Positions 26,492-32,061 of a DNA stretch of 64,000 nt are shown here, in pieces. A program made the translations under genes and the position numbers. The notes beneath the pieces are model-generated. The model was not told the DNA's origin and did no database searches. It worked only from the letters and a program-made list of their open reading frames with translations. This DNA is from Octopus sinensis. Its lineage: Eukaryota. Location of the stretch: contig NC_043002.1 of NCBI RefSeq assembly GCF_006345805.1, positions 24,304,001 to 24,368,000 of the forward strand. The letters run 5' to 3'. The stretch's first letter is position 1; each line of letters begins with the position of its first letter.

Positions 26492-28385
26492 TAAAATACA
26501 GTTATTGTCTCACCACCGTAGATTTAGTTTTTGTATTGGCTATGGTACCAACCAGGCTTGAGATCATATGCCTATATTATCAAAAATGTTCTTACTTCCT
26601 TAAGTTAGTAGAATATGTTTTGAGGGAGATTTGTCTGCTATTTCTAGCAGATGAAGTGACCTTAAAGATGCTTCCACATTGAGTTCATCAGATCATCAAA
26701 TCTTTGTCATGGTGGTCAATGTTTGCTGGAAGAACATTGTATATGTTTCATTTAAAAGTGTGATTATTGACATCTTTTGACAAAACATAGTGATATTTAT
26801 TTGGTGTTATTGAATGCTGGGTTAGCCCTGATCCAGCAGATCTATGACCAGAGGAACTCTAGTCTTGACATCCCATCTTTTCCCAGATAATACATCCACA
26901 ATCACATTATCAAAAGTGTTGTTCTTTTCCAAGACACATTATCCAAAGTGTCATTTTTCTTTTCAAGACAATGAGTGATTTAGCTGCCATTTTTAGCATT
27001 ACACAGAAGCACCCTCATTGGCTTGTTTCTCTGTAAAAGTTATTTTTAACTTTTCTGATTATTTTATAAATTTATAGTGGCTGCCGTTGGTTGTTCAAGT
27101 GTGTGTTATTAAATGGAAAAACAGTTAGTATGAATCACCATAAGACATTTTTGTGTGTAAATATATTGTTTATTCTGTGCTCACCTTTTGTGGTGGAAGT
27201 ATATAGTATGATACAAAAGCATGTGTGTTTACATACAAAGTAAGTTTTGATCTTTGCTTTTGCACTGAAAGAAATAACATATAATATTTGTATTACAGTG
27301 TGTATGCATGTGTGTAATGAGAACAGTCATTTTGAGAATATATTTTGTGTTGAGGTGAATAGACATGTGAGTTGCACATGGGAGATTGCATGTGGAGCTG
27401 CAGAGAAGACATGTGTCTTTGACCAAAGCCTGGTAGGAACTGTGACCGTTTCTACAGTTTCACTCAGAATGAGGCTAGTGTCTCAGAATGAGGCTACTGT
27501 ATCAAAGCAAGGCTAGACACCTCATTGATATATTTGTCTGCTGTGCAGGTCAACTCATATATTATTATGCCTAGGTTACATAGCTCTTAACATCAGTGTA
27601 CTTCATCTGATATTGGAAGTCTGCTTCAATTCTAGTTGGTAACTTCTGTTTATAAGCTATTAAACACAACAGTTGTTAATCACTCAAAACCTACATTTCA
27701 GTTTTATATATCTGTGGCTTCTTTTTAATTGTTTTACATCTGTTTGCCATGTTGAATTGTATGAGATGGTTTATTGGTTGGATAAATGGTGGTTTTTATT
27801 GCTTGATGATGCCCTTCCTACTGTTAACCACTCAAGTGTAGAATAGGAGTGGAGCATAGTTGGGTGCCTTGCTCAGGAGCTCACAATGTCAGTAATAAGA
27901 TCTTAGGATCATCATTGTTGTCATTGTTTAATGTTCGCCTTCCATGCTAGCATGGATTGGGTGGTTTGACTGAGAACTGGTATGCTGGGCGACTGCACCA
28001 GGCTCCAATCTGATTTGGCAAGGTTTCTACTGCTGGATGCCCTTCCTAATGCCAACCACTCCGAGAGTGTAGTGGGTGCTTTTTACATGTGGTTATTAAT
28101 AGTGAAGCACCTTCACCTTACAACCCATGTCCTTCTGAGTCCTTATTAATTAATCAGATTTCTTTCTGCTCTTTATGAAAGTTTATTTAGATATTGTTTT
28201 TTCCCTCTGATTTATTGTACCTATAATTGAAAATCATTAATTAACAGGCTCCTTATAGTTTTATACATAAACTGTATCAGCAATAAAATTATTAACCAAA
28301 GAAAACCTCAGTTATAGTATCATACTACCGTTCACTGTTTTTATTAATTAAGCATGCTAATGTATTTTCCTGGATTTTATTACAG

Positions 28386-28519
28386 TTTTATACAACCACT
28401 GGTTTGCCGACAAAGACGTTGGAACAGAACATGTGTGCAGTGTGTGGTAATGACATTCTTGTTATGAACAATGAGAATGCAATCATAGAAAAAACCTGCA
28501 AATTAACATGTAATCATAT
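28386..28519 (+). CDS. RNF121: RNF121 coding exon 6 (FYTTTGLPTK...CAVCG...LTCNH), first half of the RING-H2 domain
   Basis: TTACAG acceptor; ends at U12 donor GTATCCTTT (28520); 134 nt, phase 0 to 2. Confidence 0.95.
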
Positions 28520-28815
28520 GTATCCTTTATTTCGTGTCTGGCATCAATTTATCCTAACCTGCTTTTGTCCTGTCCTCATCCCCACACACAGATACAACAC
28601 CTTCAATATCTGGAACCTAATATAAATATAATTACAATTGTTTGTATGCTGTTGTTATGTATTAGATTATTATTATTATTTGCTTATGTGTGGTGGTGTG
28701 AAGAACAGGGTATTTGCACTGTTTTTACATCTTTCTTCTGAGTTCAAATCACATCACAGTTGACTTTACCATTCATCTTTCTAGGCTTAATAAAATAAGT
28801 CAAGTACTAGTATCA

Positions 28816-29258
28816 CTATACATTATTTACATTTGACAGATATTTGTCCTCATCTTGTTTGTTGTTAACATAATGTTTTGGCTGATATACCCTCCAGCCT
28901 TCATCAGGTGTGTTGGAGAAATTTTGAACCTGGGTTCTCATTCCTAAGGTATTTTTTGATGTTATTATTATCATTATTATTATTATTATTATTATTATTA
29001 AGGTCACTGCCTGGAATTGAACTTGGAATTTTGGGGTTAGTACGCCATATGGCCACAAGCATATGGCGTAGTGGTTAAGAGCGCAGGCTACTAACCTTAA
29101 TAATGAGAACCCAGGTTCAAAATTTCCCCAAGACACCTGATGAAGGCTGGAGGGTATATATCAGCTGAAACGTTGTGTTAACAACAAACAAGATGAGGAC
29201 AAATATCTGTCAAATGTAAATAATGTACATAATTCTTCATCTCTTAAATATAGAACTG
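28816..29258. mobile_element. Fold-back element: head-to-head tRNA-derived heads plus Penelope-like terminal repeats carrying hammerhead motifs
   Basis: Inverted arms 28819-28942 and 29102-29227; central tRNA-like A/B-box sequences in both orientations; flanking direct repeat TAGTATCA (28808-28815, 29259-29266) inside an older SINE. Confidence 0.75.
29132..29179 (+). ncRNA. Minimal hammerhead ribozyme-like motif, sense to RNF121
   Basis: GACAC-CTGATGA-A-GGCTG-loop-CAGCT-GAAAC-GTT-GTGTT; stems I and II pair, stem III is the palindrome AACGTT. Confidence 0.7.
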
Positions 29259-29294
29259 TAGTATCAATATAATCAACTATATCTTCTCATTAAC

Positions 29295-29650
29295 ATGTTT
29301 ACAAAGTCAGAAAATAGCACAGCTCCCATGACTTTCAGAAACATTTTTTCATGCTAAGAGTTGCTGAAGCATGGAACAAACTGCCGGCATCAGTTGTTAG
29401 TTGTCGGAGCACTGCATCCTTCAAAACTTCCATGCTTCCTGAGATTCGCCAACACTACACTTGATTTTCTCCCCTCCATACACACACAAGCATGTTCACT
29501 TTCCAGACATTTCTACAAGCATGTATCTGACTCATACACTGTTCACTTCCCAGGCGTTTTTACATTAAGGCATATGCTTTATACGCACTTTTGACAAGTT
29601 GTGGTGCACCTGAGAACTGTATACAATAATTTCATTATTATTATTATTAA
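29295..29650 (+). mobile_element. CR1-type LINE 3' end with (ATT)n tail
   Basis: Translates to FQKHFFMLRVAEAWNKLPASVVSCRSTASFK, a typical CR1 ORF2 terminus, then UTR and ATTATTATT. Confidence 0.82.
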
Positions 29651-31719
29651 ATTTGTTGCCGTGTGTGTATGAGTGAAAGAAATTATTACTGTGATTGTTG
29701 TTGTTATTCAATAACATTAAATATGAAAGCTATATGAATATGGAGGCTGTAGAGAATGAATAATTTTAACCTTAAGACATGATAGTCTCTCAAGTACTGA
29801 TACCATATGCACCTAGTAGACTCTGTAAAATGGTTGAGTATAGGAAGGGCACTCAGTTGCATAAAACAAACCAAAAATGGAATGTACTCGTGAGGTGTGG
29901 TTCCTGATCTGTTCAGAAGGGCAGTAAATCCAAATAAGAATTGACTCAGTCTATGACAGCCCATACAACCGATGCCAACATGGAAAAGTGGATGTAAATT
30001 GATAATGATGATAAATGATGGGTGGAGCATAGATGATTCTAGAACTGATGGGTAGAGAAGACATCAGTTGATATTTGCAAGGGAAAAGGCAGCAAGATGA
30101 CAGAATTGTTAGCATGCTGGGCGAAATGCTTAGCAGTATTTCTCCCGTCGCTATGTTCTGAGTTCAAATTCTGCCATGGTCAACTTTGTCTTTCATCCTT
30201 TCAGGGTCAATAAATTAAGTACCAGTTGTGTAGTGGGGTAGATCTAATCGACTGGCCCCCTCCCCCAAAATTTCAGGCCTTATGCCTAGAGTAGAAAAGG
30301 ATAAATTAAGTACCAGTTGAGTACTAGGGTCGATGTGATCAACTGTCTACCTCCCCACAAAATCCAGGCCATGTGCCCATAGTTGAAAAGAAAGGATATT
30401 TTCAAGGGAAATAACTGTTGTGTAGACCTGGTAGATATGTGATGTAGTGATATGGTAAGTGTTAGGTGAAAAAGTGCTCTGAATTGTAATTGGTTGTCTA
30501 CTTGTGTAAGAGTTGCGGTTGAGAAAGACCTGGTTGAAGTCATTAGTAGAGTCAGATTTTGAGATGATCAAGGACTGAAACAGGTTTTAATATATTGTAT
30601 TACTGACTTATCCAACCCAGTTTGGAAATGTAGATGTTAAAATGTTGATGGTGAGACAGAGATTCACTTTCTTGCTGAGATATTTCTAGACTGTTGAGCC
30701 AGAGGTCTCTGGTTCAAACCTATTTACTCTCATGGTTGTTTCAGCATATCAGAGTATCTTTGCTCCAACATCTGCTGCTATTCTTGACTTAAAAGATCTG
30801 TGCTATGTACTACCTCGTCATCTAGCACTGAAGGTAAAGTACAATCAAAACTATAGCACATTAACCATATCTTTGTTTTACTCCTCACCACTCTGTGACA
30901 CTAGCTGAGCTTTGGTCCTTGGTGGTTAAACTGGACAGAAAAGAGACACAACAGATTTTTACTGTTCGATAGAGAAAACACTGACGTTGTGGAGTGAGTC
31001 CCATATTTCAAGATAAAATAACTAAAGTTTAAGACATAGAAGTTATGGTACCTATTATACTGCTTGATATACTAATGTGGTAAGTAGAGTGCCTTGTCTA
31101 AGAAGACACAACACAGTGGTTGTAGCAAGGTTGGAACCTGTATTCCACTGTCTTATTTTTTTTTCTCATAATTTATACCTGGTACTGGAACTATCTTTAA
31201 TCAGAAAAGGCTAGTTATCTTGAAGTAAAGGTGGTCAGTGTCTTGGAAAGCCCCTATCCTTCATAAGTGGCAATTTCTACTCCACTGTTGATATCACCAT
31301 CATTTATGTTGGTTTTACAATGCTGGCATGGGTTGGAGAGTTTGACAAGTGAGAGAACCATATCTTGTTCGAATGTCTCAGTTTTGGTGTGGTTTTAACA
31401 GCTGAATATCCTTCCTAAAATCAACCACTTTACTGTGTGTACTGGGTGCATTTTTTATTATTTTTGGTGGTACCAGTGCTAGAGAAGTTATGTTCTCTTG
31501 ACTCTGCATTGTCCTTCAATTTGCCAATTAACCAATATGTATTGTGATTTATGTTCTAATGTTTGTTTTTTTTTTCTTCCATTCTACTTTTCTCCCAATT
31601 GTTTTATATATGTTTACACTGACATGTTTTGTAATCTTTTTGCATAATATATTTTGTATTTCATGTGATGGTTCTTTGTGGCCAATGAAAACAAAAACAA
31701 ATCTTTATTGAAAGAATGA

Positions 31720-32061
<342 letters not shown>

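Follow-up and report, generated by a model that had tools for sequence, protein, structure and literature searches.

The 64,000-nucleotide stretch of the Octopus sinensis genome considered here (contig NC_043002.1 of assembly GCF_006345805.1, forward-strand positions 24,304,001 to 24,368,000; hereafter the window, with positions counted from its first letter) carries two RING-finger coding exons, at 28386-28519 and 31890-31991, of a gene that we take by resemblance to be RNF121-like. The reading frame continues from one exon to the next across an intron (28520-31889, plus strand) that the original prediction for this locus had already called U12-type. Such introns are marked by the donor GTATCCTTT and by a branch site similar to TCCTTAAC near the acceptor. 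Here, GTATCCTTT stands at 28520, and CCTTAAC at 31865-71 lies 19 nt before a cag acceptor (the boundary between cag and C being at 31889/90); by these signals the intron is U12-type, and its splicing is predicted. A 443-bp fold-back element (28816-29258) begins 296 nt into this intron. It is one copy of a dispersed repeat family which, we hold with good though not full confidence, is a tRNA-derived short interspersed nuclear element (SINE) integrated by machinery from Penelope-like elements (PLEs), which form a class of retroelements equipped with a reverse transcriptase and a GIY-YIG endonuclease.

A repeat finder and direct reading of 28300-29800 resolve the element into two inverted arms of ~132 nt (28819-28950 and 29094-29227), each with a hammerhead ribozyme motif, as had been proposed; the repeat finder reports segments of 71 nt and 66 nt that are complementary at 94% each and offset by a 2-nt indel. 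The 8-bp direct repeat described earlier is likewise there, the word TAGTATCA abutting the element identically at 28808-28815 and at 29259-29266 as the two copies of a target-site duplication (TSD). The left of the two constituent units (28816-29052, minus strand; nhmmer arm match 28817-28959, E = 3e-44) ends at a proximal, “no-tail” 3′ site. Behind its arm come an internal (TAA)n tract, which appears on the plus strand as (ATT)n (28960-29001, from reading and from the alignment of copies), and a partial tRNA-related head (29002-29052, minus strand) that consists of the B-box half, with a B-box-like word on the minus strand at 29013-22, and an A-box stub of 11 nt (29041-52); from there to the anticodon-region word CTAACC, the head has lost ~20 nt. 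The right unit (29053-29258, plus strand; arm match 29094-29232, E = 5e-44) has a near-complete 5′ end, with its A box TGGCGTAGTGG read at 29064-29074 on the plus strand, and runs to a distal 3′ site through a 26-nt “tail” (29233-29258, plus strand) that only the right arm possesses. We take its A-box word to fit the RNA polymerase III (Pol III) A-box consensus TRGCNNAGTGG. To a single internal deletion of ~100 nt, the right unit has lost its B-box half together with the (TAA)n tract and ~15 nt from the start of the body, and a contig loose end falls at 29096. The 5′ ends of the two units meet in the palindrome TGGCCA (29050-55, centred on 29052/29053).

The A box, the minus-strand B-box-like word and the (ATT)n run thus lie where the original prediction put them, and both of its tRNA-like pieces are present; read against the family, however, these are complementary halves and not two head-to-head heads, because other copies run from the A-box half on into the B-box half. 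Each unit of the window copy retains one box, and neither has a complete A+B promoter. Since one deletion per unit took complementary promoter halves, and the left ribozyme core has undergone CpG decay, the window copy is most likely inert, an ordinary decayed member of its family.

The motif of the right arm (29132-29179, plus strand) is of the minimal type known from PLEs and, as read from the sequence, has all core letters. Helix I pairs GACAC (29132-36) with GTGTT (29175-79) over 5 bp; the core comprises CTGATGA (29137-43), an unpaired A (29144), GAAA (29167-70) and C-G-T-T (29171-74); and helix II joins 29145-50 to 29161-66 over 6 bp, GGCTGG with TCAGCC in the majority form, with G-U as the closing pair in the window. 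The conserved hammerhead letters C3-U4-G5-A6-N7-G8-A9 and G12-A13-A14 are all found in this arm, as is an H17 other than G (U17 = 29174), and the cut is predicted after 29174, in agreement with the earlier placement; the same core recurs in the majority of 106 arms. Helix III is absent beyond A15.1-U16.1 and C15.2-G16.2, with GAAA followed by C-G-T-T and no loop, and ACGT is self-complementary. The left motif (28867-28912, minus strand), recognized by reading the reverse complement and by alignment, has a broken core. As had been noticed, AAAAC replaces GAAAC at 28875-79, that is, G12 has become A; G16.2 and a helix I G have likewise become A, two of these three changes being CpG transitions, and the motif falls outside the conserved hammerhead core. 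Helices I and II both occur in the minimum-energy fold of a 48-nt natural core. In the 81-nt contexts of two other copies, helix II is predicted and helix I is outcompeted by a downstream AC-rich hairpin beside the cut site.

This architecture fits the PLE minimal hammerhead ribozyme (min-HHR) class, any self-cleaving activity, as a dimer or with the help of a protein, being putative. In those passages of Cervera and de la Pena (2014; PMC4209133) on which this comparison draws, the PLE min-HHR lacks helix III beyond ACGU and has a long helix II (~6-8 bp) with a 5′ unpaired base and a helix I of 4-5 bp; it is thought to work as a dimer, in which the ACGU palindrome can pair, and in Schistosoma pairs of min-HHRs are found on opposite strands, 100-700 bp apart.

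The family itself was delineated in the 2.72-Gb assembly, where a 191-nt right-unit query gave at least 1672 first-look candidates (40 of them were scored) and a head-only query gave 354 (the best 30 loci were mapped). Alignment of solo copies gives the order of a full unit as a ~75-nt head, a (TAA)n tract of 12-361 nt (31 full units), a body of ~150 to ~175 nt with the hammerhead motif and an optional ~26-nt tail. The copies are short, non-coding and dispersed, with TSDs and a discrete 5′ end, all of which are features of SINEs; a common 5′ start word, 11-12 nt before the A box, occurs in five unrelated contexts. The boxes of the head stand at tRNA spacing (A box 8-18, B box 52-62), and over its full length the head can be aligned with genuine tRNAs from this genome, with a best score of 59 as compared to 35.5 ± 4.7 (maximum 51.5, n = 300; z = 5.0) in a shuffle control; this score falls inside the range of 40.5-98.5 seen between one tRNA isotype and another. 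The acceptor and anticodon stems of the head no longer pair. Among the 31 full units, TTTT is absent from the sense strand of 24 and present on the antisense strand of all 31, with 53% of shuffles containing it, an asymmetry that weakly suggests a Pol III template. The family is present in the runs of four organism labels and looks like one old burst. Outside the family loci, no further arms occur in ~396 kb of unrelated loci or in the rest of the window, and the copies therefore number in the thousands rather than the hundreds of thousands; contig depth ratios, which are not copy numbers, are at odds with this density check, and neither is taken as a count. Four copies (L002:1740-1900, L083:1580-1740, L020:2990-3133 and L079:1580-1740 (minus strand)) have at least 160 nt of identical upstream sequence in common and probably lie at one fixed place inside, or were carried along by, another repeat.

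Do head and body move as one? It is conceivable that they do not, and that a PLE-dependent, retrozyme-like hammerhead body with a preference for (TAA)n landed in the microsatellite tail of a tRNA SINE that depended on a long interspersed nuclear element (LINE), the two never having moved jointly. The larger number of candidates for the body query than for the head query would fit such a history, as would headless bodies, which do exist and are preceded by (TAA)n, by (CAA)n/(CAG)n or by nothing (L007, L014, L022, L015), and PLEs are described as favouring microsatellites and ATT sites (PMC8557442, PMC11167929). Headless bodies, however, are expected from 5′ truncation of a joint unit as well. 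Linkage of the tRNA head and the arm in other copies, set beforehand as a test, was found: the body lies downstream of the head in the same orientation in 27 of the 30 best head loci (the query's own locus included; two with a gap above 500 nt), and was not found downstream in the other three (L078, L087, L089). Furthermore, in each of four runs, 100-155 contigs pass from the A-box half straight into the B-box half, in the order of full units, with agreement of 0.77-0.89, and several head-to-head pairs (L084, L092, L023) bear heads on both arms within one TSD; the template must therefore have held head and body together. We regard two independent elements as an unlikely account of the family, while the same scenario offers a plausible origin for its founder.

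The manner of integration is recorded in the arrangement of the arms. Across 58 loci, neighbouring arms within 700 bp are head-to-head in 39 of 46 cases, tandem in 6 and tail-to-tail in 1; with two duplicate loci dropped, 38 head-to-head pairs served for the counts of tails and flanks. Exactly one arm carries the tail in 32 of these pairs, no arm in 1, and both arms in none, the remaining 5 having a truncated or unclear end. In the one-tail pairs, the proximal site ends one arm and the distal site the other, and the tail columns were discordant within pairs in 5000 of 5000 permutations. The same discrete 3′ ends, 26 nt apart, are recognizable in each of the four runs from contig loose ends (29233 and 29260), and their distances from the predicted hammerhead cut upstream of them are 58 nt and 84 nt. 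The longest word common to both flanks of a pair has a median length of 8.5 nt (range 4-13 nt; null mean 5.06 nt) and reaches 8 nt or more in 25 of the 38 pairs and in 40 of 2000 mismatched flank pairs; because the flanks share longer words than mismatched flanks do, each head-to-head pair is one insertion. The inverted partner can be complete (L084, L092) or as short as ~11 nt (L021). A rule linking the tail to the completeness of its arm was considered and rejected, given that the tail sits on the longer arm in 11 pairs and on the shorter one in 15, the two arms being similar in 6. Past both 3′ ends, the loose-end consensus is AT-rich and heterogeneous, and the TSDs of L094 and L095 lie in (TA)n, unlike many others.

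This footprint of inverted partner, one-sided tail, partial tandems and TSDs matches the published hallmarks of PLE insertion. In the relevant passages of Craig et al. (2021; PMC8557442), PLE insertions show partial tandems and an inverted, 5′-truncated copy at the 5′ end, together with a tail of 30-40 bp that is often present at one end only. Frangieh et al. (2024; PMC11167929) report that cleavage and extension by a purified PLE protein take place on both target strands, that reverse transcription starts from two adjacent internal sites, the interval between which is the tail, and that in an anole PLE these starts lie 85-92 nt past the hammerhead cut. In this in vitro system, both strands were extended and no strand difference in the start site was seen.

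How else could such pairs arise? SINEs normally depend on LINEs, and twin priming yields inversions, so that mobilization by a LINE, for instance one of the R4/Dong type or another (TAA)n-targeting LINE, comes readily to mind. Twin priming, however, inverts part of a single copy and would not leave a second 3′ end on the opposite side; nor does a LINE account for a pair of fixed 3′ ends with 26 nt between them, each used by one arm, as in 32 of 38 pairs, for solo copies that lack an A-rich or simple-repeat 3′ tail, or for a hammerhead of the PLE minimal type. Judged on insertion footprint and hammerhead type, this second explanation is very unlikely in our estimation. The window copy alone, with its 132-nt inverted termini and 8-bp TSD, further resembles a miniature inverted-repeat transposable element (MITE), that is, a DNA-level fold-back element moved by cut-and-paste, with long terminal inverted repeats and an 8-bp, hAT-like TSD. 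This resemblance dissolves at the level of the family, where the flank words vary from 4 to 13 nt across the 38 pairs with no fixed TSD length, the termini are asymmetric with a one-sided tail, the central junction is different at every locus, and solo units with a tRNA-type 5′ end stand beside 5′-truncated partners and partial tandems, which renders a MITE highly improbable.

Considering these observations together, a SINE integrated by Penelope-type machinery could proceed as follows. Pol III would produce the unit RNA, directed by the A and B boxes in the head. The enzyme of a PLE, acting in trans, would then bind the 3′ module, comprising the hammerhead and ~60-85 nt downstream of it, and nick both target strands, with reverse transcription starting from the proximal site on one strand and from the distal site on the other. 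Two cDNAs growing in this way would meet head to head and complete on each other, such that the insertion would be born as a palindrome, a single event in which the PLE reverse transcriptase and GIY-YIG endonuclease prime on both target strands and leave two inverted copies of the repeat. In the window copy, CpG decay of the left ribozyme core and one internal deletion per unit came later. A fuller version of this scheme is more tentative, and we would sooner expect it to fail in some part than to hold throughout: a Pol III-promoted tRNA SINE parasitic on PLEs rather than LINEs; concerted two-strand priming from two fixed sites 26 nt apart, one per strand; a one-tail rule that is the footprint of an asymmetric, probably dimeric PLE integration complex; and insertions that, born palindromic, seed introns with double-stranded RNA hairpins.

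Several findings weigh against integration of a tRNA-derived SINE by PLE machinery and need to be set beside it. First, the original prediction anticipated a Penelope relative of the arm, and none came to light: the arm was not found by blastn in 43 PLE loci (30 of 3.2 kb and 13 of 9 kb), and an nhmmer profile of 73 arms had no match in them at E ≤ 10. The genome offers 5029 first-look GIY-YIG candidates, with open PLE frames up to 883 aa, in comparison with which the 43 loci are a small sample of few families; the search covered PLEs and not the 3′ ends of LINEs. The idea of a Penelope-mobilized SINE-like element survives in one part, a SINE-like family with a Penelope footprint, and lacks the other, an arm-sharing PLE in the sample. 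Second, no curated model recognizes the motifs. Rfam gives no hammerhead or tRNA match in 28000-30000 (E ≤ 1) or on a full copy pair (E ≤ 10), and nothing at gathering score in the whole window, and ARAGORN finds no tRNA in the window or in six full copies. The Rfam hammerhead models expect a helix III, and both the hammerhead and the tRNA assignments come from reading and from comparison with published descriptions, not from such models. The microRNA-family Rfam matches on L084 were discarded, being below gathering score and reflecting only the palindrome. Third, the 81-nt hammerhead contexts fold no better than shuffles (z of -0.35 to -1.08), and the body is evenly ~90% conserved, the hammerhead region faring no better than the rest and dips occurring at CpG sites only; this pattern does not support selection on the ribozyme. 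Fourth, the tail is ~26 nt, as opposed to 30-40 bp in the literature. Fifth, arms of one pair have an identity of 0.931 and arms of different loci 0.924 (p = 0.15), and non-CpG variants are often discordant within pairs; within-pair identity and shared variants are thus uninformative or slightly discordant, and an origin of both arms from one RNA template is not supported. Sixth, the family counts come from 60 best-match loci (58 with arms, 109 arms in all) and not from a random sample.

Finally, RNA adds a further point on the same side. None of the records listed as containing the stretch is an RNA record. In raw RNA-seq data from a related organism, the depth over the unit is equal in both directions, 84-86% of the reads continue into unlike flanks, and their starts and ends are not piled up at the cut site or at the unit ends in these ordinary cDNA libraries, which may lose Pol III RNAs; the reads look like family copies embedded in other transcripts, and neither separate Pol III transcripts nor cleavage can be recognized in them. 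For an anole PLE, RNA read ends are likewise missing at the cut site (PMC11167929). Editing of the hairpin was considered in the same reads, where A>G and T>C changes are enriched, and was set aside because A>T, C>G, A>C and G>C are enriched too, a spectrum that reflects which copies are expressed. At L021:1383, the RNA reads (X22-X24) before the unit 5′ end match the reverse complement of the head with agreement of 0.89-0.94 (164-227 reads per run), and DNA contigs are heterogeneous at this position (0.47); among the expressed copies, a single head-to-head junction or a small number of them seems to prevail.

The PLE loci are of some interest in their own right. A young family (L063:1643-5540 together with L061, L062 and L065-L071) has frames of 538-883 aa, 781 aa in the case of L063, in copies that are ~92-97% alike and have (TA)n on both sides. 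Some 55 nt before its 3′ end stands a hammerhead-like word with a T3/A8-type core, the helix I pairing of which is unconvincing. A different minimal hammerhead, with the palindromic loop GATC after GAAAC, occurs at L072:4019-4105 and at L039 as two abutting copies on opposite strands, beside a decayed GIY-YIG match. Lastly, L064:7437-7640 contains a ~170-nt unit with a minimal hammerhead (GAAAC-TCGA-GT) that is flanked by a 21-nt direct repeat and lies beside (TA)n; it was entertained as a relative of the tRNA-headed family and rejected, its sequence being unrelated.

At the host locus, the consequences of the insertion are probably neutral for the gene. Folded as RNA, the unit has a predicted energy of -250.2 kcal/mol, as compared to -104.2 ± 5.9 for 100 shuffles (z = -24.6), in line with the long hairpin that had been expected ~300 nt from the minor 5′ splice site. 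In the pre-mRNA, the window copy would only form this hairpin of ~130 bp, 296 nt from the U12-type donor, and in doing so would bury its single intact hammerhead, which by its design would anyway depend on a second copy acting in trans. That the hairpin has been kept by the host for its structure, whether as a substrate for editing or small RNAs or as a modulator of minor-intron splicing, is scarcely tenable: its fold is very stable and its left junction occurs in contigs of a second organism label, but the arms differ by 6-7%, as the arms of unrelated loci do, decay has reached both promoters and one ribozyme core, pairs of this kind number in the thousands, and sharing among relatives is expected of an old neutral insertion.

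As for that sharing, a contig of organism B crosses the left junction and follows the arm for 31 nt with 0 differences, which is the length demanded by the 31-letter bridging rule, and a contig of organism E, with 22 of 465 letters different (~4.7%), reaches 29 nt past the left junction, just under that rule. These contigs hint that the insertion is probably older than these taxa. In the left flank, a high-copy module of 65 nt (28736-28800) gave 193 first-look candidates, a 3-kb locus often holding several copies; it stops 15 nt short of the insertion and extends into the right flank at none of 29 paralogous loci. At these loci, nesting of the element inside an older SINE, as had been supposed, was not confirmed, and the paralogues of the module, which ends before the insertion, provide no empty-site test. 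The right flank (29293-29640) is another very abundant repeat, in which a frame remnant resembles the C-terminal end of a LINE reverse transcriptase. Organisms A, B and C have ~100 times the summed contig depth of organism E there, which would be in keeping with a lineage-specific burst; for the hammerhead family, the four organisms are similar. Elsewhere in the host gene, the donor after the second RING exon (31992-32000) is again GTATCCTTT, such that two consecutive introns would have U12-type donor words, and a (GA)n microsatellite (31780-31818) lies ~70 nt upstream of the U12-type acceptor region.

What would such a family mean? A SINE is assigned to its class according to the LINE from which it borrows its enzymes. 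The present family is likely a SINE mobilized by a PLE; if this is true, the SINE concept would extend to the third class of retroelements, and hammerhead-bearing clients of PLEs could own a promoter, which retrozymes are said not to have. The family also serves as a natural archive of how a 250-nt template is integrated in the PLE manner, thousands of times over, and its rule of one start per fixed site (32 of 38 pairs, never both distal) makes a concrete prediction for the in vitro PLE system. Ohshima and Okada are said to have described tRNA-derived retroposons of octopus in 1994. The open-access literature searched holds no description of a PLE-mobilized tRNA SINE; Repbase, Dfam or the 1994 octopus SINE paper may already have the family.

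Among known systems, the insertion units of PLEs (Penelope/Poseidon, Neptune, Nematis, Naiad) come closest in footprint: as far as the consulted parts of PMC8557442 and PMC11167929 describe them, they too have an inverted, 5′-truncated copy at the 5′ end, a short tail at one end, partial tandems, and a hammerhead tens of nt before the start sites of reverse transcription; their flanks are AT-rich or microsatellite, a trait that some of the octopus copies may share. Unlike them, the octopus family has no open reading frame for a reverse transcriptase or GIY-YIG endonuclease, bears a tRNA-related, Pol III-type head in place of the PLE pseudo-long terminal repeat (pLTR), has a tail shorter than 30-40 nt, and is without similarity to the 43 sampled PLE loci of the same genome. 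With the PLE min-HHR, in the portions of PMC4209133 available to us, it shares the CUGAUGA...GAAA core, the ACGU palindrome, the unpaired base at the 5′ end of helix II and the short helix I; the family motif, by contrast, is missed by the Rfam models and sits in a tRNA-headed, SINE-like unit rather than in a PLE pLTR.

The non-LTR retrozymes of metazoans are short non-coding repeats with type I hammerheads as well, and in the excerpts at hand they are viewed either as non-autonomous offshoots of PLEs or as PLE clients (PMC7761336; Li, Clavereau and Pollet, 2026, bioRxiv 10.64898/2026.07.22.740005). These same excerpts portray tandem arrays that yield circular RNAs and are said to be promoterless, whereas the octopus family is dispersed, pairs its arms in inverted order far more often than in tandem (39 versus 6 of 46) and has a tRNA-type head. 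Tandem same-strand units releasing circular RNA, by which retrozymes are defined, are accordingly not what is found here: only 6 of 46 pairs are tandem, the window pair is inverted, and no ends of the RNA-seq reads were seen at the cut site.

Two further groups resemble the family in having the form of SINEs. The first is SMalpha of Schistosoma mansoni, reported by Ferbeyre et al. in 1998. SMalpha carries Pol III boxes. Like the octopus family, it is a dispersed, SINE-like retrotransposon with a type I hammerhead; its hammerhead, however, is canonical and highly active, with loop-loop contacts, and the parts of PMC8490949 and PMC6155905 that bear on SMalpha describe no PLE-type footprint. The second group consists of the LINE-dependent tRNA-derived SINEs, which have in common with the octopus family a tRNA-related head with A and B boxes, a short length, a high copy number, TSDs and 5′ truncation, and from which it differs in that both its 3′ module and its insertion footprint are of the PLE type.

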